From assembly GCA_002923395.1 (NCBI GenBank), contig BEIK01000002.1, positions 1,965 to 65,964 on the forward strand: a stretch of 64,000 bases of DNA. Direction: 5' to 3'. This document shows, one piece after another, positions 6,856 to 62,236 of the stretch; the stretch's first letter is position 1; each line of letters opens with the position of its first letter. Under the pieces are notes generated by a model, which worked only from the letters and a program-made list of their open reading frames with translations, was not told the DNA's origin and searched no databases. Made by a program: the position numbers and the translations under genes. This stretch comes from a bacterium HR34. Its GTDB lineage: Bacteria; Patescibacteriota; Minisyncoccia; Minisyncoccales; HRBIN34.

Positions 6856-8238
6856 ATGATAAGCAACAATCAACAAAAAAATCTTTCAGAAATAATATCT
6901 CTTTGCAAGAGAAGGGGTTTTATTTTTCAATCCTGTGAAATATATGGAGGTTTGTCTGGTTTTTGGGATCTCGGGCCTCTTGGTTCTTTAATGAAAAATA
7001 ATTTAAGAAAATTATGGCTTAAAAAATTTACAAGACAAACAGATAATGTTTTTTTAATTGAGGGAACTATTATAATGCACAAAAGAGTTTGGGAGGCGTC
7101 AGGTCATATCGAGAACTTTACAGATCCTTTAATGGAATGTAAAAAGTGTAATACAAGATTTAGAGCGGATCATTTAATGAATGGTAAATTTGTAGGGCAG
7201 GGTAAAGCAAAAGAGAAAGGGCAATGTGTTAATTGTGGTTCAAAAGAATTTACAGAGCCCCGTATGTTTAATTTGATGTTTAAAACATTTGTTGGTCCTG
7301 TTGAAAACGACGCTTCAATTGCTTATTTAAGACCAGAAACAGCACAATCAATGTTTACCAACTTTCAAAATGTTGTTAATTCAATGAGGGCAAAACTTCC
7401 TTTTGGTATAGCGCAGGCAGGGAAATGTTTTAGGAATGAAATAACAACAGGTGATTTTATTTTTCGTTCAAGAGAGTTTGAAATAGCAGAAATTGAGTTT
7501 TTTGTAAAACCAGGAGAAGATGAAAAGTGGTTTGATTTTTGGCTTGAAAAATGGGAGAAGTTCTTTTTAGAGATAGGCATTAAAAAAGAAAATCTAAGAA
7601 GATACGAACATCCAAAAGAAAGTTTGGCGCACTATTCAAAGAGAACAGTTGATTTAGAGTATAATTTTCCTTTTGGATGGTCAGAGTTGGCAGGTGTTGC
7701 CAACAGAACTGATTATGATTTAAGAAGACACAACGCATTTTCAGGAAAAGATTTAATGTATTTTGACGAAAAAGAAAACAGAAAGTATTTTCCTTATGTT
7801 ATTGAGCCAACAATGGGTTTAGAGAGGGTTTTAATGACTTTAATAATTGATGCTTTTGAGGAAATTGAAGGCGGAAGAACAAAAACAACTCAGCCAACAA
7901 AAGAAAAAGAGTATTTATTAAAACTTAATAAAAATATAGCGCCAATAAAAGTTGCCATACTACCGCTTGTTAAAAACAATGAGGAAATTGTTAAAAAGAG
8001 CAGGGATGTGTTTGATATGCTAAAGTGTGATTTTTATTGCCAGTATGATGATGCAGGTTCAATTGGGAGAAGATACAGAAGGCAAGATGAGATAGGCACG
8101 CCATACTGCATCACAATAGATTTTGATACTCTAAAAGATGATACAGTTACAGTAAGAGACAGAGACACCATGGAGCAGGAGAGAATAAAAATAAAAGAAC
8201 TTCCTGATTTTTTCAAAGAGCAATTTGAAGACATTTAA
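6856..8238 (+). CDS. glyQS: Glycyl-tRNA synthetase (alpha2 dimeric class II type)
   Basis: Class II motifs (FRNEITTGDFIFRSREFEIAEIEFF; EPTMGLERV), Cys-cluster insertion, anticodon-binding C-terminus. Confidence 0.9.
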   Translation: MISNNQQKNLSEIISLCKRRGFIFQSCEIYGGLSGFWDLGPLGSLMKNNLRKLWLKKFTRQTDNVFLIEGTIIMHKRVWEASGHIENFTDPLMECKKCNTRFRADHLMNGKFVGQGKAKEKGQCVNCGSKEFTEPRMFNLMFKTFVGPVENDASIAYLRPETAQSMFTNFQNVVNSMRAKLPFGIAQAGKCFRNEITTGDFIFRSREFEIAEIEFFVKPGEDEKWFDFWLEKWEKFFLEIGIKKENLRRYEHPKESLAHYSKRTVDLEYNFPFGWSELAGVANRTDYDLRRHNAFSGKDLMYFDEKENRKYFPYVIEPTMGLERVLMTLIIDAFEEIEGGRTKTTQPTKEKEYLLKLNKNIAPIKVAILPLVKNNEEIVKKSRDVFDMLKCDFYCQYDDAGSIGRRYRRQDEIGTPYCITIDFDTLKDDTVTVRDRDTMEQERIKIKELPDFFKEQFEDI

Positions 8239-21955: not shown

Positions 21956-22588
21956 ATGTTTGAACTATTAGCGCAGGCAAACAAAACATTTGGGGACAGG
22001 ATAACAGAATGGATGTCTGATGTTTATAATTTCTTTACAGGATCAGAAGCCAATTTAAAAACAGTTGATGTTATTTCAAACACCACATTTGCTTTGGATT
22101 ATTTAGAAAATCTTTTTTCAACCATTCTTTTGCCTGTAAAATTATTTTTAATAGCCTTTTCCATATTTTTATTTATTTTTATAATTATTCTTTTAATGAA
22201 AACAAGCTTTATAAGATATAAATACTTAGAATCAATATATCACTTTGTTGTTGGGAAACCATTTGGTATTAAGAAATATACAAAAGAGTGGAAGAAAATT
22301 ATTGATTTAATTGAAACAGACGATCCGCATAATTACAGGATAGCCATAATTCAGGCAGATGATTTGTTGTCTGAGGTGCTCTCTCAATTAGGATATAAAG
22401 GCGATACAATAGAACAACAACTTGAAAAAACAGGGGAGTATTTAATTTCTAACAAAGAAGATGTTATAAAAGCGCACAAAATTAGAGAAGATCTTATTTA
22501 TGATCCTGCATTCCAAATTACAAAGGATAAGGCAAAAGAAATAATTTCAATTTATGAGACTGCCTTAAGAGATTTAGAGTATATATAA
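21956..22588 (+). CDS. Hypothetical membrane protein
   Basis: 210-aa ORF with one strong TM segment (LFLIAFSIFLFIFIIILLM); no family recognised. Confidence 0.45.
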   Translation: MFELLAQANKTFGDRITEWMSDVYNFFTGSEANLKTVDVISNTTFALDYLENLFSTILLPVKLFLIAFSIFLFIFIIILLMKTSFIRYKYLESIYHFVVGKPFGIKKYTKEWKKIIDLIETDDPHNYRIAIIQADDLLSEVLSQLGYKGDTIEQQLEKTGEYLISNKEDVIKAHKIREDLIYDPAFQITKDKAKEIISIYETALRDLEYI

Positions 22589-22937
22589 TGACATTTTACA
22601 TCAAATAAAAAACGTACTTATCCTTATTATTTCTAATTTTCTTTTTTGCACTAGTATATTTTGTGACAACGTAATTGTTTTGTTTAAAATAGAGGTTTAA
22701 GTTTTTATTTTCTCTTGTTATTTTCAGTTTTAAAATAAAGTATAACTACCACCTTCACAAACTTAGATGCCTAGGTATTAAATTTTTGTAGGTAGTCTGT
22801 CAGTAATATTAAAAAAAGCCAATTAAACCTTAAAAGAGTAACTTAAGTAAATTAACGAATTCAATTTTTAAGATCTGCAAAGAGGATATAAATAATAAGT
22901 TTATTATCAAAAAATGTGTTCATCTTATACAAGATTC

Positions 22938-22965
22938 TTGATATAGTCATATTTTTTGTTATAAT
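22938..22965 (+). promoter_or_regulatory. Candidate sigma-70-type promoter for the tRNA(CAU) gene
   Basis: TTGATA, 16-nt spacer, TATAAT; the -10 ends 14 nt before the tRNA 5' end. Confidence 0.4.
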
Positions 22966-22979
22966 TATAAATATAAAAC

Positions 22980-23050
22980 TGCGGGGTGGACCAGTAGTAG
23001 GTCGCCAGTCTCATAAGCTGGAGGCCCAGGTGCAATTCCTGGCCCCGCAA
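22980..23050 (+). tRNA. tRNA with CAU anticodon (Met; initiator, elongator or Ile2 identity unresolved)
   Basis: Hand-folded cloverleaf: acceptor TGCGGGG/CCCCGCA, D stem GACC/GGTC (A11:U24), anticodon loop CTCATAA, T arm CCAGG-TGCAATT-CCTGG; no encoded CCA. Confidence 0.85.
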
Positions 23051-23057
23051 CAAATTT

Positions 23058-23085
23058 ACCCGCCTTAAATTGTGGCGGGTTTTAT
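23058..23085 (+). terminator. Rho-independent terminator-like hairpin
   Basis: ACCCGCC - 9-nt loop - GGCGGGT followed by TTTAT. Confidence 0.55.
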
Positions 23086-23109
23086 GTTATAGTATTATTG
23101 TAGTTTTAA

Positions 23110-23182
23110 GCCGGCGTAGCTCAGTGGTTAGAGCAGGGGCATCATAAGCCCAAGGTCGCGGGTTCAAATCCTGCCGCCGGCA
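23110..23182 (+). tRNA. Second tRNA with CAU anticodon (Met or Ile2)
   Basis: Acceptor GCCGGCG/CGCCGGC, D arm GCTC-AGTGGTTA-GAGC, anticodon loop ATCATAA, T arm GCGGG-TTCAAAT-CCTGC; no encoded CCA. Confidence 0.88.
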
Positions 23183-23185
23183 CTA

Positions 23186-23207
23186 GATTTGAACCCGACA
23201 GAGGGGA
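23186..23207 (+). repeat. tRNA-trailer motif: inverted copy of the preceding T arm plus GAACCCGACAGAGGGG
   Basis: GATTTGAACCCG is the exact reverse complement of T-arm bases 23159-23170; GAACCCGACAGAGGGG resembles the start of the 124-nt module at 23893, 24363, 24526 and 24689. Confidence 0.6.
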
Positions 23208-23223
23208 TAATAAACAAATTTTT

Positions 23224-23790
23224 ATGTTAATTTATTTCATAACTTCTAATTCTAAAAAATTTAATGAAGTTAAAGAGTTTTTTAAAGATGTAAAAAATAT
23301 TCAGATAAAGAGAATAAATTTAGATATTCCCGAGATTCAATCAGTTGAGGTTAAAGAAATTGTAAAATTCAAGATTAATTACGTTCTTAAAAATTATAAT
23401 TTTAAAAATTTTTTAGTAGAAGATACAGGTTTTTATATAAAGTGTTTAAATTATTTGCCAGGTCCTTTTATAAAATGGTTCTTACTTTCAATCCGCTCTA
23501 AGGGTTTATATGAGATTTGCAATTTTTACAGAAATTATAAAGCAGAAGTAAAAATAGCTCTCGGATTAAGATTAAAAAACAAAAGTTATATTTTCAAAGG
23601 TAGCGTTAAAGGAAGAGTTGTAAAGCCAAAGAAGCGTTTATCTAACAGTGAGATATGGTGGGATAATATTTTTATGCCGGAAGGTTTTAGTAGAACTTTT
23701 AGTGAAATGAGTTCAGAAGAAAAAAATTTAATAAGTCACAGAGGAAAGGCATTAAGAAAATTGAAAAATTTTTTAATAAAAATAAAATAA
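23224..23790 (+). CDS. rdgB: Non-canonical purine NTP pyrophosphatase (RdgB/HAM1 family)
   Basis: ITSNSKKFNEV, EDTG, ISHRGKAL motifs of the Ham1 fold. Confidence 0.8.
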   Translation: MLIYFITSNSKKFNEVKEFFKDVKNIQIKRINLDIPEIQSVEVKEIVKFKINYVLKNYNFKNFLVEDTGFYIKCLNYLPGPFIKWFLLSIRSKGLYEICNFYRNYKAEVKIALGLRLKNKSYIFKGSVKGRVVKPKKRLSNSEIWWDNIFMPEGFSRTFSEMSSEEKNLISHRGKALRKLKNFLIKIK

Positions 23791-23810
23791 TAGAATATAT
23801 GGCGGCCGTA

Positions 23811-23883
23811 GCTTAAAGGTAAAGCATCAGGCTGTGGCCCTGAGGACTACGGGTTCGAGTCCCGTCGGCCGCCCAAGGCGAAA
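23811..23883 (+). tRNA. tRNA-His (GUG) with encoded G-1
   Basis: G-1 + GCGGCCG/CGGCCGC + C73, anticodon arm TCAGG-CTGTGGC-CCTGA, T arm ACGGG-TTCGAGT-CCCGT. Confidence 0.93.
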
Positions 23884-23888
23884 ACCCC

Positions 23889-24012
23889 ACAGAGGGGGTC
23901 GGGGAGATTGGGTATCTCCCCGTGAAGGAAAATAGCTCCGACTTTATGTCGGAGCGCAAGAAACCATGGGTTTCTTGGGAGCGAAGCGACGGGTTCGAGT
24001 CCCGTCGGCCGC
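23889..24012 (+). repeat. 124-nt GC-rich hairpin module, copy A (tRNA-His-linked); candidate structured ncRNA or miniature mobile element
   Basis: 121/124 identical to copies at 24359-24482 and 24522-24645; contains three 8-bp inverted repeats and ends in GGGTTCGAGTCC. Confidence 0.85.
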
Positions 24013-24025
24013 CCAGCAGAAAGAT
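23999..24025 (+). repeat. Duplicated 3' end of tRNA-His (T arm + acceptor 3' strand + CCA-position bases), orphan fragment
   Basis: ACGGGTTCGAGTCCCGTCGGCCGCCCA is identical to 23859-23885, 140 nt upstream. Confidence 0.9.
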
Positions 24026-24164
24026 TCCATATAAGGCGTTAGGGAGACCTTGATTTAGGTCTAGGAACAGGTTGAATATCTTCTTCCGTATGACAACAGG
24101 CAGATCAATCATTATATAGGTAGGTCCAGTCATATTCCAGTATACACAAAAAATGGAAGGGTGC

Positions 24165-24250
24165 CGGAGTGGTCTAACGGAACGGCCTGGAGAGCCGTGC
24201 CTCCTTGTGGGGCTCGTGGGTTCAAATCCCACCCCTTCCGCATAATTGTC
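24165..24250 (+). tRNA. tRNA-Ser (GGA), long variable arm
   Basis: Acceptor GGAAGGG/CCCTTCC, anticodon arm ACGGC-CTGGAGA-GCCGT, long variable arm, T arm GTGGG-TTCAAAT-CCCAC. Confidence 0.9.
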
Positions 24251-24257
24251 CCCGTAG

Positions 24258-24330
24258 TTCAACAGGATAGAACGAGTCCCTCCTAAGGACTAAATGGGGG
24301 TTCGAGTCCTCCCGGGGACACCGAGCAAAG
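24258..24330 (+). tRNA. tRNA-Arg (CCU)
   Basis: Acceptor GTCCCCG/CGGGGAC, anticodon arm AGTCC-CTCCTAA-GGACT, T arm GGGGG-TTCGAGT-CCTCC. Confidence 0.92.
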
Positions 24331-24358
24331 CGAGGTGGCAACCGGAGACGAGAACCCC

Positions 24359-24482
24359 ACAGAGGGGGTCGGGGAGATTGGGTATCTCCCCGTGAAGGAA
24401 AATAGCTCCGACATTATGTCGGAGCGCAAGAAACCGTGGGTTTCTTGGGAGCGAAGCGACGGGTTCGAGTCCTCCCGGGGAC
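24359..24482 (+). repeat. 124-nt hairpin module, copy B (tRNA-Arg-linked)
   Basis: Same core as 23889-24012. Hairpins: 24381-88/24394-401, 24415-22/24428-35, 24438-45/24449-56. Confidence 0.85.
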
Positions 24483-24521
24483 ACCGAGCAAAGCGAGGTG
24501 GCAACCGGAGACGAGAACCCC

Positions 24522-24645
24522 ACAGAGGGGGTCGGGGAGATTGGGTATCTCCCCGTGAAGGAAAATAGCTCCGACATTATGTCGGAGCGCAAGAAACCGT
24601 GGGTTTCTTGGGAGCGAAGCGACGGGTTCGAGTCCTCCCGGGGAC
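24522..24645 (+). repeat. 124-nt hairpin module, copy C
   Basis: Identical to copy B, offset by 163 nt. Confidence 0.85.
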
Positions 24646-24771
24646 ACCGAGCAAAGCGAGGTGGCAACCGGAGACGAGAACCCCACAGAGGGGGTCAAGA
24701 AAATTTAGATACAAGATATGAATAGCAAATTACAAGTTTAATATTGAAAAAACCAAATTTAAAAATTATTA

Positions 24772-24800
24772 TTGAATTTATCTTATTAATTTGTTATATT
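24772..24800 (+). promoter_or_regulatory. Candidate promoter for tRNA-Asp
   Basis: TTGAAT, 17-nt spacer, TATATT; 15 nt upstream of the tRNA. Confidence 0.35.
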
Positions 24801-24815
24801 TATTATGTAAAATAT

Positions 24816-24890
24816 GGACCCGTGGTGTAGCCCGGTTAACACGCCTCCCTGTCACGGAGGAGATCGAGGGTTCAAATCCCTTCGGGTCCG
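24816..24890 (+). tRNA. tRNA-Asp (GUC)
   Basis: Acceptor GGACCCG/CGGGTCC, anticodon arm CCTCC-CTGTCAC-GGAGG, T arm GAGGG-TTCAAAT-CCCTT. Confidence 0.92.
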
Positions 24891-24916
24891 CGGTAATTAA
24901 AATATAAATTAAAAAT

Positions 24917-25483
24917 ATGAGTTTTATCTTATTTATTGTCCTCATTATAATAGTTTTTTGGTTTTTCTATACATATAATAAATTTGTTGCGTTGAAAAAT
25001 AGAGTAATGGAAGCTTGGTCTGATATAGATGTGCAGTTAAAAAGAAGATACAATTTAATTCCAAATTTAGTTGAAACAGTAAAAGGTTATGCAAGTCATG
25101 AGAAATCTGTTTTTGAGAATGTTACAAAAGCAAGGACACAAGCGCTTGAAGCAGAGAAGTCAGGCGATATAAAAGGTGTTGCTGAAGCTGAAAACTTTTT
25201 AACTTCTGCTTTAAAAACATTGTTTGCAGTAGCAGAAAATTATCCTGATTTAAAGGCGTCTCAAAATTTTTTGGAATTGCAAAGAGAATTAAGAGATGCT
25301 GAGGATAAAATACAAGCAGCAAGAAGGTTTTATAACGCAACTGTTATGGAATTTAATACAAAATTAGAAAGTTTGCCAGATGGTTTAATAGGCCGCCACC
25401 TAATGAAATTAAAACCATTTGAATTCTTTGAAATAGCAGAAGAAGAAAAGGCCGTGCCGCAAGTAAATTTTGAATCTAAATAA
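24917..25483 (+). CDS. lemA: LemA family protein
   Basis: N-terminal TM plus the LemA pattern (YNKFVALKNRVMEAWSDIDVQLKRRYNLIPNLVETVKGYASHE). Confidence 0.85.
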   Translation: MSFILFIVLIIIVFWFFYTYNKFVALKNRVMEAWSDIDVQLKRRYNLIPNLVETVKGYASHEKSVFENVTKARTQALEAEKSGDIKGVAEAENFLTSALKTLFAVAENYPDLKASQNFLELQRELRDAEDKIQAARRFYNATVMEFNTKLESLPDGLIGRHLMKLKPFEFFEIAEEEKAVPQVNFESK

Positions 25484-25513
25484 TTTTTATAACTTTTTAT
25501 CTCCTAATTATAT

Positions 25514-26413
25514 ATGCCATCTGTTTATTCTCAAATAAGTAAAAACAGAACAAAAACAATCTTGCTCATTTTGGTTTTTATAGGCTTGATAGTTTTAATT
25601 GGCAGAATAATAGATTATTTTTTTGGTTCTGATTTTGCTTTCTGGTTTGCGCTTGCTTTTGCTACTTTTATGCCATTAATAAGTTATTGGTATTCAGATA
25701 AAATAGTTTTAGGAATAACAAGAGCAAAACCAATAGATAAATCAGACAACCCAGAACTTTACAGAATTCTTGAAAATCTTTGCATTGCAACAGGTCTTCC
25801 AATGCCAAAGTTGTATATTTTAGAAGAGTTGCAACCCAATGCTTTTGCAACCGGCCGCGATCCGAAGCATTCTGCAATTGCTGTTACAAGAGGATTGTTG
25901 GAAATTTTAGATAGGAAAGAGTTAGAAGGAGTTTTGGCACATGAGTTGTCTCACATAAAGAACAGAGACACTCTTGTGTCCACAATCGCTGCTGTGTTAG
26001 CAGGAGTTATTATAACTTTAGTTGATTTCTTTTTAAGATTTGGTTTAATATTTGGTTTTCGCGGTGAGGATAGAAGAGAAGGGAATATTTTTGGTTCAAT
26101 TATTTTACTTGCTGTTTTAATTTTGGCGCCCTTAGGAGCAACGCTTTTAAGATTAGCTGTTTCAAGGCAAAGAGAATATTTGGCAGACGCTTCGGCAGCT
26201 TTAATTACGAGATATCCACAGGGTTTGATTAATGCTTTAATTAAAATATCATCCAATCCGCACCCTTTGAAAGTTGCCAATCACAATGTTAACCATTTAT
26301 TTTTTGCAAATCCTTTAAAAGAAAATAAAACTTTTTCTTTTATAGAATCATTGTTTTCAACTCATCCGCCGGTTGAAAAAAGAATAGAGGCATTAAAAAG
26401 TTTAAACATATAA
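25514..26413 (+). CDS. htpX: HtpX-like M48 zinc metalloprotease
   Basis: HELSHIKNRD zinc motif, 4 TM segments, C-terminal STHPP..RI. Confidence 0.88.
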   Translation: MPSVYSQISKNRTKTILLILVFIGLIVLIGRIIDYFFGSDFAFWFALAFATFMPLISYWYSDKIVLGITRAKPIDKSDNPELYRILENLCIATGLPMPKLYILEELQPNAFATGRDPKHSAIAVTRGLLEILDRKELEGVLAHELSHIKNRDTLVSTIAAVLAGVIITLVDFFLRFGLIFGFRGEDRREGNIFGSIILLAVLILAPLGATLLRLAVSRQREYLADASAALITRYPQGLINALIKISSNPHPLKVANHNVNHLFFANPLKENKTFSFIESLFSTHPPVEKRIEALKSLNI

Positions 26414-50090: not shown

Positions 50091-50111
50091 CAAATTATAC
50101 ACATTAACAAT

Positions 50112-50258
50112 ATGGCAAGATTTGTTGATATAGAAACTCCATATTCGGGATATTTAGGGAATAATGAAGAAGAAATCAAACGGAATCTTCTTTATGCTAG
50201 AATGTGCACAAGAGGCAGTTTGTTGCATATAGAAATACCTTCATTCTCGAGAACATGA
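50112..50258 (+). pseudogene. Truncated ORF fragment (48 codons); resembles the N-terminus of phage/plasmid-borne nucleoside-deoxyribosyltransferase-like (DUF4406-type) proteins
   Basis: MARFVDIETPYSGY...NLLYARMCTRGSLL... ends prematurely; family recall is from memory and tentative. Confidence 0.3.
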
Positions 50259-50321
50259 GAATATTATTTAGGATAATTTCTTTTATATTTTTATTTTTCC
50301 TTTAAAGTAGTCAAGAAAATT

Positions 50322-50756
50322 TTACTTTAAAAATTGAGTAAATTCTTTCATTTCTTTTTGGTATAGTTTTATTTTTTCTTCTCTTTTTTCTTCCGGGATT
50401 ACTGATAATATTTCATTTCCTATAGATGCTAATTTAAATCCATAACCGATCGGGTTTATACCAAGCATAACATCATAATCTACTTTTCTATTCTCGTAAA
50501 AACATACTTAAAAGATTTATGACCATCTTTTGATATTCTAAAACTTTTCTTTCAACATCTTTTCTTACTCATACCAATTTTCAATCAAAGGTTCTTCTGG
50601 TTTTATTAATATCCATGGTCCTATCTGTCTGTCTTTTTCAAAATGTCCTTCACAAGATTGCACTGTTCTTATTTTATAAGCATTGAGCATTATAACAGTT
50701 TCTTTAATATTTTCTTCTATTTTCATACCCAGATTATCTCTTAGATTTTCTACCAT
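50322..50756 (-). pseudogene. Disrupted gene of unknown function (63-codon head plus out-of-frame 53-codon tail)
   Basis: The ORF at 50565-50756 ends in TAA, followed in-frame by EKMLKEKF then another stop. A further open segment VDYDVMLGINPIGYGF...QFLK (50322-50483) lies on the same strand in another frame. Confidence 0.4.
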
Positions 50757-50938
50757 ATTTTTTATTTTGTTTAATTATTCTTGAGCTTTCTCATTCCATT
50801 CTTCTTTTACTACTCTTTCTTTAGGATTGTATTTTTCTCCTTCCATAATGTTATAATATTTGTTGATTTTTATAATTTTATAATGTAACCTTTATTTATT
50901 AAATTTTATTATAAACCTTTTCTTAAATCAAAACTTTT

Positions 50939-61791: not shown

Positions 61792-62199
61792 GTGGATGCT
61801 TTAAGGCAACCGCTTTCCGACTATTGTCGGAAAGAGGAAACTCCGGACATCCTGCTCCGATTTTTTCGTCGGAGTATAAAACCCTGCGGGTAAAGGCCCG
61901 CCGCCGTAAACTTATTGTAGTTTGCGGTAGGGGTGCGAACAGAGACGAGGTTGCCAGTAATGGCGCCTGTCCTTTTCGCTTCAAAATAATTTTGAAGCGA
62001 AAAGGAAAGCTCTGCGGTAACGCAGAGGTGAAACGGCTAAATCCCAGGGGGATGCAAGGCTAAAACCTGCTAAAAATCTAGCAGGTATGGGTAAGCCGCA
62101 ATGAGTGTTATGGGTAACCATAACACCAAGATAAATGGTTGCCACTCTTCCTGCTTGAAATAGGAAGAGCACAGAATCCGGGTTATTAAAGCTTCCACA
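61792..62199 (+). ncRNA. rnpB: RNase P RNA (bacterial type A-like)
   Basis: P1 pairing GTGGATGCTTTAA / TTAAAGCTTCCAC, conserved AGAGGAAACTCCGGAC (CR-I/P4) and CACAGAATCCGGGTTAT (CR-V/P4); GC-rich island in AT-rich DNA. Confidence 0.9.
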
Positions 62200-62208
62200 A
62201 AATAGACC

Positions 62209-62236
62209 AGACCTCGAGAAAATTTTCTCGAGGTCT
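62209..62236 (+). terminator. Perfect 28-nt palindrome immediately 3' of rnpB (termination or processing hairpin)
   Basis: AGACCTCGAGAAAA|TTTTCTCGAGGTCT; no U-tract follows. Confidence 0.4.

Follow-up and report, generated by a model that had tools for sequence, protein, structure and literature searches.

A duplicated tRNA-His 3' end in a Parcubacteria (CPR) genome may mark the edge of an RtT-like trailer repeat

The RtT repeats found behind the tRNA-Tyr genes of E. coli have been known for decades from the tyrT literature of the 1970s-90s. In E. coli K-12 the locus is arranged as tyrT-[RtT]-tyrV-[RtT]x3, and its array has a period of 178 bp over 3.1 copies. Every RtT ends in the 3' 18-mer of tRNA-Tyr, which occurs in six copies, two within tRNAs and four as orphans, and in the Rfam consensus (RF00391) the 5' strand pairs with this tRNA-derived 3' piece through a closing helix of 7-8 bp. 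An inverted copy of the tRNA 3' region forms the 5' half of the E. coli repeat (19/22, a match reached by 0/2000 shuffles). Of 5426 complete genomes, only 3984 have RtT, each at 1-7 places; strain SK1144 represents the empty allele, and the copies seen in this analysis were confined to the E. coli tyrT locus. One tyrT repeat unit constitutes rttR, which is lost in some strains (PMC3318445). Citing Bosl & Kersten 1991, that paper and a mobilome preprint (bioRxiv 10.1101/2024.07.17.603846) mention that it is freed from the precursor of the tRNA as a separate stable RNA, and the preprint still calls the mode of action of RtT unknown.

The locus compared here lies in a window of 64,000 nt, the whole stretch of DNA that was analysed, from a sparsely sampled Parcubacteria (CPR) lineage. 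A 26-mer from the native tRNA-Arg trailer had no match in metagenome contigs, and a 25-mer from the 3' end of tRNA-His was found in genome contigs only once, as a single copy in an unrelated Acidobacteria MAG, which indicates that the lineage is absent from those contig collections. A search for synteny through Ham1 returned one homologue at 95% identity and the next at 49% at most, in other gene context. Around tRNA-His, the window contains the following features.

23761..23788, + strand: promoter-like site TTGAAA-16-TAAAAT, 5' of tRNA-His (consensus scan, 10/12 match)
23801..23874, + strand: tRNA-His(GTG), intact (ARAGORN; Rfam RF00005, 70.8 bits)
23849..23875, + strand: direct repeat copy 1, 27 nt, inside tRNA-His (exact match)
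23876..23988, + strand: insert E, 113 nt (MFE fold; absent from sister strain L001)
23989..24015, + strand: direct repeat copy 2, orphan tRNA-His 3' piece, 27 nt (exact match)
24016..24154, + strand: native tRNA-His trailer / His-Ser spacer, an AT-richer paralogue of E (in-register identity)

The tRNA-His body occupies 23802-23874, with G-1 encoded at 23801 and CCA not encoded. The 27-mer ACGGGTTCGAGTCCCGTCGGCCGCCCA occurs in two exact copies on the + strand, with no third in the 64-kb window even at up to 3 mismatches, and shuffled sequence gives 0 expected matches. The 27-nt repeat and its insert are real and non-random. An earlier note on this DNA had described this duplication and was right about its content, as copy 1 lies in an intact tRNA-His and comprises the T arm, the acceptor 3' strand, the discriminator (C) and two further nucleotides (CA). 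It placed the copies at 23859-23885 and 23999-24025, a shift of +10 nt throughout from their true positions, 23849-23875 and 23989-24015. The intact tRNA is indeed upstream and the orphan 3' fragment downstream, with neither ARAGORN nor RF00005 calling a tRNA at copy 2.

Insert E begins 1-2 nt past the end of tRNA-His and measures exactly the 113 nt first reported, far too small for a recombinase gene, as was also argued then. From its 5' end it comprises GGCG (23877-23880), H1 (23884-23899), H2 (23900-23922), the linker GUGAAGGAAAAUA, H3 (23935-23955), H4 (23957-23977) and a linker ending in GGAGCGAAGCG. The hairpin module announced in the earlier note appears in the MFE fold as four strong hairpins (-72 kcal/mol, z = -6.2), the stems of H1-H4 being perfect and 8-9 bp long. 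Together with the preceding CG, copy 2 is predicted to form a perfect 7-bp T-arm-like hairpin (23987-24007), and the fold also predicts a helix of only 4 bp between its CGCC (24010-24013) and the GGCG at the 5' end of the insert. This GGCG has the same letters as tRNA-His positions -1 to 3. Weak inverted termini of 6-7 nt, GAACCC...GGGTTC, derive from the T arm, and the element, at 50-60% GC, is an island in a genome of ~30% GC.

ARAGORN made no tRNA or tmRNA call on the inserts, and a comparison with Rfam (tRNA, tmRNA, group I/II intron, HDV-like, hammerhead, twister and others) gave, apart from noise, nothing but a 9-bit tmRNA match on the T arm. A group I intron was ruled out, since the upstream tRNA is intact and the group I introns described in Patescibacteria tRNAs interrupt the anticodon at position 35/36 (10.1101/2025.07.03.662931). 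The promoter-like site 5' of tRNA-His, with the next such sites at 24744-24800 ahead of tRNA-Asp (consensus scan), would put the insert within a His-Ser-Arg transcription unit, and the module would then be co-transcribed with the tRNAs. RNase P RNA is encoded in the window as well. The idea of an antisense small RNA was also considered; no minus-strand promoter was found for the insert.

The same module recurs behind tRNA-Arg(CCT), of which the earlier note made no mention. Its features, with the junctions of the whole two-locus structure (a slash marks each joint), are these.

24248..24322, + strand: tRNA-Arg(CCT), intact, its T loop opening the array (ARAGORN; Rfam, 63.8 bits)
24298..24696, + strand: tandem array R-U-R-U-R (TRF period 163, 2.4 copies, 100% matches)
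24298-24370, 24461-24533 and 24624-24696, + strand: R copies
24371-24460 and 24534-24623, + strand: U copies, 90 nt each (H2-H4 and linkers)
within 23700-24900: junctions CCCA/AGGCGAAAA, GCGAAGCG/ACGGGTT, GGGGGTC/GGGGAGA and GCGAC/GGGTTCGAGTCCTCC

R, 73 nt long, consists of the T loop GGGTTCGAGTCC, the tRNA-Arg 3' end and 51 nt of native trailer including H1. Over 127 nt the His and Arg module copies differ at four positions (97% identity), none of them within the H1-H4 stems, although at p about 0.07 these differences are too few for a structure test. The orphan copies of the Arg array join the module's ACGGG T-stem strand to Arg's CCTCC, so the junction falls inside the T loop. Their pseudo-T stem is degraded to 3/5 pairs, which argues against strong selection there for a tRNA-like fold. 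The MFE fold of the Arg unit is strong, with short predicted closing helices, GGUG:CACC and CCGG:CCGG, unlike the 4-bp GGCG:CGCC of the His copy. With the same module behind both tRNAs, the His duplication becomes one instance of a small repeat family. The 163-nt concatemer contains stop codons in all frames on both strands, which rules out an endless ORF of the kind suggested by DRT2/neo. The number of Arg units (2.4) is the least certain item of the structure.

Of known systems, the RtT repeat of the E. coli tyrT operon appears to be the closest analogue of this module. Both lie directly 3' of a tRNA on the same strand, between tRNAs as well as at the operon's distal end, and both are GC-rich, structured modules of ~110-130 nt; each unit finishes with the 3' end of the upstream tRNA, copied exactly from the T arm or loop onwards (18 nt in E. 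coli; here 27 nt, or 23 nt plus trailer). They share tandem repetition (178 x 3.1 in E. coli, 163 x 2.4 here) and variation between strains in presence and copy number, and no associated recombinase gene was found with either, here among the 20 ORFs scanned. For the module, pairing of the 5' strand with the tRNA-derived piece is a prediction of short helices that differ between the His and Arg loci, against 7-8 bp in the RtT consensus. An exact 14-mer, GGAGCGAAGCGACG, adjoins the tRNA piece in both, a match that 18-40 of 1000 shuffles reach; it is the only sequence link to RtT, and common descent is therefore unproven.

The differences begin with the hosts, CPR against Enterobacteriaceae, and with the tRNAs, His and Arg-CCT against Tyr. 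Here the module has four independent perfect hairpins, whereas RtT has a multibranch fold; the duplicated piece takes in the whole T arm, with no encoded CCA; and there is no tpr-like ORF. The RF00391 covariance model, which scores 133-138 bits on four E. coli copies against a gathering threshold of 45 bits, found no match at E <= 1 over 22500-26000 and none at E <= 10 when the His insert or the Arg unit was searched by itself. With nhmmer, the RtT profile found nothing in the window, and the best match of the reverse search had E = 0.3 over 24 nt. As the element fails both covariance-model and profile searches, we treat it as an analogue of RtT and not as a member. An inverted tRNA copy like that of the RtT 5' half was not significant in the Arg trailer (644/2000 shuffles) or the His insert (1965/2000).

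The earlier note had proposed comparing empty and filled tRNA-His loci, and a sister strain with ~0.3% background divergence from the window does carry a clean empty site. Two of its assemblies were used, L001 covering the His and Arg sites and L008 the Arg site only. The strain comparison rests on two lineages. In L001, tRNA-His runs directly into the sequence that lies 3' of repeat copy 2 in the window. Compared with L001, the window is longer by exactly 140 nt at His and by exactly 326 nt (2 x 163) at Arg; the empty Arg allele is a single R in L001, and L008, a second assembly, agrees. Over the His trailer/His-Ser spacer block, the identity of the two strains falls to 90.7% against a background of ~99.7%. 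A block of ~1 kb with 5-9% divergence surrounds the His copy, which suggests that the allele was imported through homologous recombination rather than by a new transposition. Gain and loss are indistinguishable, as a perfect 'empty' site would also result from recombination between the repeats.

The insert resembles the trailers that are native to this genome. Its first 34 nt match the native His trailer in register at 23/34 positions in L001 (0/20000 shuffles) and at 18/34 in the window's own trailer (reached by 23/20000 shuffles), and the score of a gapped alignment of E with the native His trailer of L001 was reached by 0/1000 shuffles, with controls not significant. The left 25 nt of E match the native tRNA-Arg trailer with 2 mismatches. 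The H1 motif has five matches, all 3' of tRNAs (three different ones), against 0.02 expected. Among the trailers tested for an inverted tRNA copy, only that of tRNA-Met2 was positive.

23186..23206, + strand: native tRNA-Met2 trailer motif (12/12, 0/2000 shuffles)

This motif repeats the T arm of Met2 itself in inverted orientation, with a perfect match over 12 nt (GATTTGAACCCG); it overlaps an H1-like box GAACCCGACAGAGGGG and is found in both strains. Taken at the level of sequence, the comparisons indicate that the module belongs to a tRNA-trailer sequence family native to this genome and is not imported cargo. The 90-nt core U has no other copy in the 64-kb window. Its linker pattern gave 0 matches in public genome and metagenome contig collections, a 28-mer of U and two junction patterns gave 0 matches in a viral contig collection, and blastn of the core against phages and plasmids returned only generic T-arm matches. 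Two further similarities were set aside: that of the Arg trailer GAGCAAAGCGAGG to the 3' linker of U was not significant (p about 0.11), and a decayed U relic behind H1 in the empty Arg allele was weak (11/26 in register, p about 0.012; gapped alignment not significant).

We favour, with a probability of roughly 0.55, the reading that the duplicated tRNA-His 3' end marks the edge of an RtT-like trailer repeat, native to the genome, spread by homology and co-transcribed with the tRNAs. Copies would arise, spread and vary in number through unequal crossing-over or replication template switching, the switch returning to the T-loop 12-mer GGGTTCGAGTCC that tRNA-His, tRNA-Arg and the module's 3' end have in common. 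This 12-mer is found only in tRNA-His, tRNA-Arg and the orphan copies; the T loop of tRNA-Gly is one base off and has no insert. Re-copying from the T loop to the departure point would make the direct repeat, whose length would differ from locus to locus (27 nt for His and 73 nt for Arg). Recombination between repeats could then expand the array in tandem or remove the module precisely, with an 'empty' site as the result. If E. coli rtT RNA is a guide, the pseudo-tRNA end may serve as a processing signal that frees an RNA of ~140-160 nt. The left junction at tRNA-His, CCCA/AGGCG, has no useful microhomology, which makes the first template switch in the model ad hoc.

Other explanations were weighed against this trailer repeat. 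A repeat-induced mis-join, or a collapse or expansion during metagenome assembly, would suit the 100% identity of the Arg units and an array whose copy number is of a sort difficult to assemble. DRR101367, an independent read set, contains the window's strain (contig L002 is 100% identical over 4817 nt, and contig L006 has 1 mismatch in 7232 relative to the window), and its short-read assembly of this strain is interrupted exactly at the Arg repeat. Contig L006 runs out into Illumina adapter shortly before tRNA-His and so offers no independent view of the His insert. The Logan contig L002, however, begins k-1 = 30 nt before the R/AAGAAA branch point, which requires R-U junction reads in the independent assembly; the Arg locus could not have supplied the private differences of the His copy or its unique left junction; a typical k exceeds the length of the 27-nt repeat; and the E. 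coli precedent shows such arrays to be biological. We regard an artefact as very improbable. The earlier note had read the geometry as attL/attR-like. What stands of this is a filled/empty polymorphism bounded by a direct repeat, with an exact empty site equal to one repeat copy (at both loci in L001, at Arg in L008); site-specific integration itself is not supported. On that account, a mini-circle or CIME-like remnant would have been inserted in the T loop by a tyrosine integrase acting in trans, the 27-nt copies being attL and attR. The T arm is a classical crossover site of tRNA-targeting integrases, and the direct repeat does begin there; the tandem array resembles an accretion of integrated copies, and, as at tRNA islands, prophages and CIMEs, the 3' part of a tRNA is repeated with the intact gene upstream and the orphan downstream. 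Unlike those elements, the cargo here is 113 nt, the Arg repeat reaches 51 nt into the trailer, and one core stands behind two different tRNAs, each with its matching 3' end. The repeats, 27 nt at His and 73 nt at Arg, both start at the shared 12-nt T-loop core and each match their own tRNA and trailer beyond it, so a single attP cannot explain both loci without chimaeric tRNAs, of which none was seen. Circles of 140-163 bp are very small for synapsis, the bracketed DNA is homologous to native trailers of the same genome and not foreign, and E. coli tyrT, where no recombinase gene is annotated, shows the same layout. The U core is missing from the phage, plasmid and viral collections searched, and a Pfam search of 20 window ORFs revealed no integrase or other recombinase, no transposase and no RT. 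These ORFs were the neighbours of the tRNA cluster (Ham1, LemA, M48 peptidase, GatCA and MreB) and candidates unlike housekeeping genes, the rest of the ORF map looking like housekeeping operons. Integration of this kind seems improbable to us.

A non-autonomous MITE-, SINE- or retro-like element that targets T loops would be moved by a genome-encoded enzyme and leave long target duplications of variable length, with the 25 nt of Arg-type trailer in the His copy as a 5' transduction. Two loci filled in one strain and both empty in the other, the near identity of the His and Arg copies, the weak inverted termini and the strict association with the T-loop 12-mer would all fit, but the ORFs scanned hold no enzyme for it, the insert is related to native trailers, and the divergent ~1-kb block surrounds the His copy. 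Where a MITE would have TIRs and a short duplication of fixed length, we found only the T-arm-derived symmetry and duplications of two different lengths, with no dispersed copies off tRNAs in the 64 kb and no further copy in the public collections searched. Such an element is an unlikely source of the repeats. Rickettsia palindromic elements and REP/BOX-type repeats are further small hairpin repeats. GC clusters in the AT-rich yeast mitochondrial genome (PMC4478555) and repetitive hairpin-forming elements in sponge mtDNA (PMC2800124) are of the same general kind, as far as those accounts describe them. Compared by description, small GC-rich hairpin repeats are likewise short and non-coding, form perfect hairpins in AT-rich DNA, are strain-polymorphic, often lie beside tRNAs and bring no enzyme; they differ in having many dispersed copies and no cap made of a neighbouring tRNA's 3' end, whereas the module copies seen in the window are all tRNA-linked. 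We also doubt a fixed, functional tRNA-like ncRNA gene (GGCG, four hairpins, T arm, CGCC), kept identical to the tRNA-His 3' end by gene conversion and deleted in the sister strain. The strong fold, the pairing of the 5' GGCG with the acceptor 3' strand, the perfect T hairpin, the GC-rich island, the sparing of the H1-H4 stems by all four His/Arg differences and the presence of RNase P RNA speak for it, yet those differences are too few to test structure, the element is dispensable in a strain at ~0.3% background divergence, and in the Arg copies the T stem is degraded and the predicted closing helix is not the one seen at His. The 100%-identical tandem amplification looks like recent turnover and not like a conserved gene, and the public genome and metagenome collections searched hold no homologue.

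We speculate, tentatively, on a bolder version of the trailer repeat: an active, structured, non-autonomous 'T-loop-homing' element that would copy itself between tRNA genes via the universally conserved T loop, by DNA template switching or through RNA/cDNA, and duplicate the 3' end of the target tRNA as it does so. Its pseudo-tRNA cap would recruit processing enzymes to yield a stable RNA, and E. coli RtT would be a second member, of independent origin or extremely diverged, in a class of parasites or regulators of tRNA operons that is widespread but has gone unrecognised. This we think unlikely. The RtT layout behind other tRNAs in a CPR bacterium nonetheless suggests a recurrent class of 3'-end-capped trailer repeats and not an enterobacterial oddity, and if the pseudo-tRNA cap is a processing signal, the repeat would be a bacterial counterpart of the tRNA-like 'punctuation' elements of organelles and eukaryotes. 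As filled and empty alleles are both available, along with a second target tRNA and a T-loop junction common to the two loci, the formation of the repeat is directly testable. Duplicated tRNA 3' ends are routinely taken as att sites, an inference that appears to be wrong here and calls for caution elsewhere.

A second hairpin cluster in the window, at 61.8-62.2 kb, proved to be RNase P RNA (gene 61794-62200) and not a related module. On the minus strand, H3 of the insert resembles a terminator, with a PrrF-like match at E about 1.

The window holds exactly two copies of the 27-mer ACGGGTTCGAGTCCCGTCGGCCGCCCA (23849-23875 and 23989-24015), against a chance expectation of none. The first copy comprises the T arm, acceptor 3' strand and discriminator of tRNA-His, with 2 further nt; the second is an orphan that none of the tRNA tools applied calls as a tRNA. 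An earlier note had described an intact tRNA-His whose 3' end is duplicated across 113 nt. An exact-match search of the window bore out this layout, including the sizes and content, but not its placement, which was 10 nt too high. The insert core has a second copy behind tRNA-Arg.

Features of the two filled tRNA loci (window positions)
23802-23874: tRNA-His(GTG), intact, with G-1 encoded at 23801; contains the first 27-mer copy
24248-24322: tRNA-Arg(CCT), preceding the second copy of the insert core
24298-24696: tandem array R-U-R-U-R, 2.4 copies of a 163-nt unit, 100% identical

The R part of the array (73 nt) starts at the T loop, GGGTTCGAGTCC, and takes in the 3' end of tRNA-Arg and a 51-nt trailer with hairpin H1 last; the U part (90 nt) contains the other three hairpins, H2-H4, with two linkers. 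In the His insert, U is preceded by 25 nt that resemble the last part of the Arg trailer, H1 included; the His and Arg copies differ at four positions over 127 nt, none of them in the H1-H4 stems. The predicted fold of insert and orphan together has four perfect hairpins of 8-9 bp, a T-arm hairpin of 7 bp and a 4-bp closing helix in which a 5' GGCG pairs with the acceptor-strand CGCC (-72 kcal/mol, z = -6.2). The Arg unit has a similar predicted fold, but its closing helix is not the same and its T stem is weaker. In the Arg orphans, the ACGGG strand of the module is joined to the CCTCC of tRNA-Arg, which places the junction inside the T loop. The Arg array looks recent, and the element region forms an island of 50-60% GC in a genome of ~30% GC. 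On the minus strand, H3 followed by TATTTTCC is terminator-like in all three copies (23935-23955, 24405-24425 and 24568-24588); a transcript through it would begin antisense to the tRNA 3' end, and a search for a minus-strand promoter for such a transcript found none.

The same tRNA cluster is found on L001, a Logan contig of a sister strain from another sample, with 97.6% identity over the locus and ~99.7% outside it. This contig lacks exactly 140 nt at tRNA-His, providing the empty site that the earlier note had proposed to look for, and exactly 326 nt (2 x 163) at tRNA-Arg; the empty Arg site is also present in an independent SPAdes assembly (L008). The locus is a true indel polymorphism. 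Two contigs of run DRR101367 match the window, one (L002) at 100% identity over 4817 nt and the other (L006) with 1 mismatch in 7232 nt, showing that the window's own strain is present in that run. L002 starts exactly 30 nt before the fork between R|U and R|AAGAAA, that is, k-1 for k = 31, with which we take Logan contigs to be built; this start would fit a de Bruijn graph branch if the reads contain R-U junctions. The Arg flanks are nearly identical between the two strains. Divergence from contigs L001 and L005 reaches 5-9%, against a background of about 0.3%, in a ~1-kb block centred on the His insert (about 23200-24370) that takes in tRNA-His, the His-Ser spacer and the 3' part of Ham1. This divergence suggests a homologous-recombination import centred on the insert, and the His allele was probably gained or lost together with that tract.

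Aligned in register from the tRNA, the insert's first 34 nt match the native trailer of the empty-allele tRNA-His at 23 of 34 positions (0/20000 shuffles), and the window's own His trailer at 18 of 34, a score reached by 23 of 20000 shuffles. A gapped, transition-tolerant alignment of the whole insert beats 1000 of 1000 shuffles, while other spacers in the same test are not significant. The H1 motif, GAACCNNANAGAGGGG, has five copies in the window (0.02 expected), every one directly behind a tRNA, among them the native trailer of tRNA-Met2 in both strains. Together, the trailer alignments and the placement of H1 assign the module to a native tRNA-trailer sequence family; judged by its sequence, it is a GC-rich, hairpin-perfected version of this genome's own trailers and not foreign DNA. 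The Met2 trailer has a further motif, present in both strains with 2 SNPs between them:

23186-23206, plus strand (L001 2719-2739): tRNA-Met2 trailer motif, a 12-nt perfect inverted copy of the Met2 T arm

This inverted copy, GATTTGAACCCG (0/2000 shuffles), is adjoined or overlapped by an H1-like box, ACAGAGGGG, and could either keep the precursor's T arm sequestered or be left over from template switching.

The duplication had been read as attL/attR-like, and this proved only partly right: the empty sites fit one prediction of integration, but its other predictions fail. Among 20 window ORFs scanned against Pfam there is no recombinase (no integrase, transposase or RT), the repeats measure 27 nt at His and 73 nt at Arg, and outside a 12-nt T-loop core each agrees with the tRNA and trailer at its own locus. 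A single-attP element in both tRNAs would make chimaeric 3' ends, of which none were seen. The feature is an indel polymorphism and not an att scar. The 12-nt core is confined to tRNA-His, tRNA-Arg and the orphan copies, and tRNA-Gly, with a T loop one base different, has no insert.

In E. coli, 178-bp repeats with a tRNA-Tyr end follow the tyrT operon, and the element was compared with these RtT repeats (RF00391) at the tyrT locus of K-12 (L011). The layout there is tyrT-[RtT]-tyrV-[RtT][RtT][RtT], with four RF00391 matches of 133-138 bits and an array period of 178 bp over 3.1 copies. Every RtT ends in the tRNA-Tyr 3' 18-mer, whose six copies lie in two tRNAs and four orphans. In the Rfam consensus structure, RtT is closed by a helix between its 5' strand and the tRNA-derived piece, and its 5' half repeats the 3' region of the tRNA in inverted form (19/22; 0/2000 shuffles). 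Of 5426 complete E. coli genomes, only 3984 carry RtT, in 1-7 places each; strain SK1144 has both tRNAs and no RtT. One of the tyrT repeat units, rttR, is lost in some strains (PMC3318445), and how it acts is still given as unknown (10.1101/2024.07.17.603846). Point for point like RtT, the CPR element lies behind a tRNA gene, is capped by a tRNA 3' piece, occurs in tandem, varies between strains and has no recombinase among the ORFs scanned around it. The two also share an exact 14-mer:

23978-23991 and 24448-24461, and 1100-1087 on the minus strand of L011 (RtT_a): GGAGCGAAGCGACG, abutting the tRNA-derived piece in both systems

The match is statistically marginal (18-40 of 1000 shuffles), and the 14-mer contains GCGAAGC, an unusually stable DNA mini-hairpin motif. 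The CPR element is not a member of RF00391: the covariance model gives nothing at E <= 10, HMM profiles of the two in both directions give nothing significant, and a 5' half made of inverted tRNA sequence could be demonstrated at neither His nor Arg. By analogy, it is an RtT-type tRNA-operon trailer repeat, unrelated to RtT in sequence. The kind is known but obscure; new here are its occurrence in a CPR bacterium and behind two tRNAs.

Beyond the observed anatomy, allele states, T-loop junction, locus-specific repeat lengths and native-trailer paralogy, we infer a route driven by homology. Replication or repair synthesis, after copying the module, would return to the T-loop 12-mer of the local tRNA, and re-copying from there to the point of departure would leave a repeat of 27 nt (His) or 73 nt (Arg). 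Unequal crossing-over between repeats could then expand R-U-R to R-U-R-U-R, or delete the module precisely to give an 'empty' site. If rtT RNA is a guide, the module may be co-transcribed with the tRNAs, and its pseudo-tRNA end may direct RNase P/RNase Z-type processing.

We give this RtT-like model a probability of roughly 55%; it accounts jointly, better than any of the four alternatives, for repeats that match their own locus, for the paralogy with native trailers and for the E. coli precedent. An element targeting the T loop and mobilised in trans, for which the confinement of the 12-nt core might be cited, is unlikely, and to the same degree so is a fixed functional tRNA-like gene, for which the predicted folds speak and against which the empty alleles do. 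Integration by an integrase, its empty sites notwithstanding, is still less likely, and we regard an assembly artefact as the least credible of all, since the start of L002 fits R-U junctions in an independent assembly.

The genes of the window are housekeeping ones (MreB, GatCA, Ham1, LemA, TIM, MnmA, EF-P, ClpB, LepA and RecO), with a block laid out like a ribosomal-protein operon. EF-Tu is 80-83% identical to Parcubacteria-group CPR sequences. The host lineage is barely sampled: Ham1 has one homologue at 95% identity and the next at <=49%. At the end of L006 (DRR101367_136; 7240-7254), an Illumina adapter, AGATCGGAAGAGCG, is fused to the Ham1 gene end and alters the called protein, leaving the window's Ham1 'not on record'. 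One promoter-like site directly precedes tRNA-His, and the next precedes tRNA-Asp; the His insert thus falls within a presumptive His-Ser-Arg transcription unit, whose distal end holds the Arg array. The sole other cluster of perfect hairpins in the window (61813-62236) is accounted for by RNase P RNA:

61794-62200, plus strand: bacterial class A RNase P RNA, in a gap free of ORFs (RF00010 at 102 bits; gathering score 100)

Following tRNA-Gly(CCC), ~850 nt (50092-50938) hold no more than short ORF fragments on either strand (48 and 63 aa) and may be a decayed gene or the remnant of a past insertion beside that tRNA. Between the two tRNA-Met genes, at 23058-23084 (plus strand), a 7-bp GC hairpin (ACCCGCC...GGCGGGT; 9-nt loop) with TTTTAT behind it resembles an intrinsic terminator; the terminator scan left it unflagged because its loop exceeds 8 nt.
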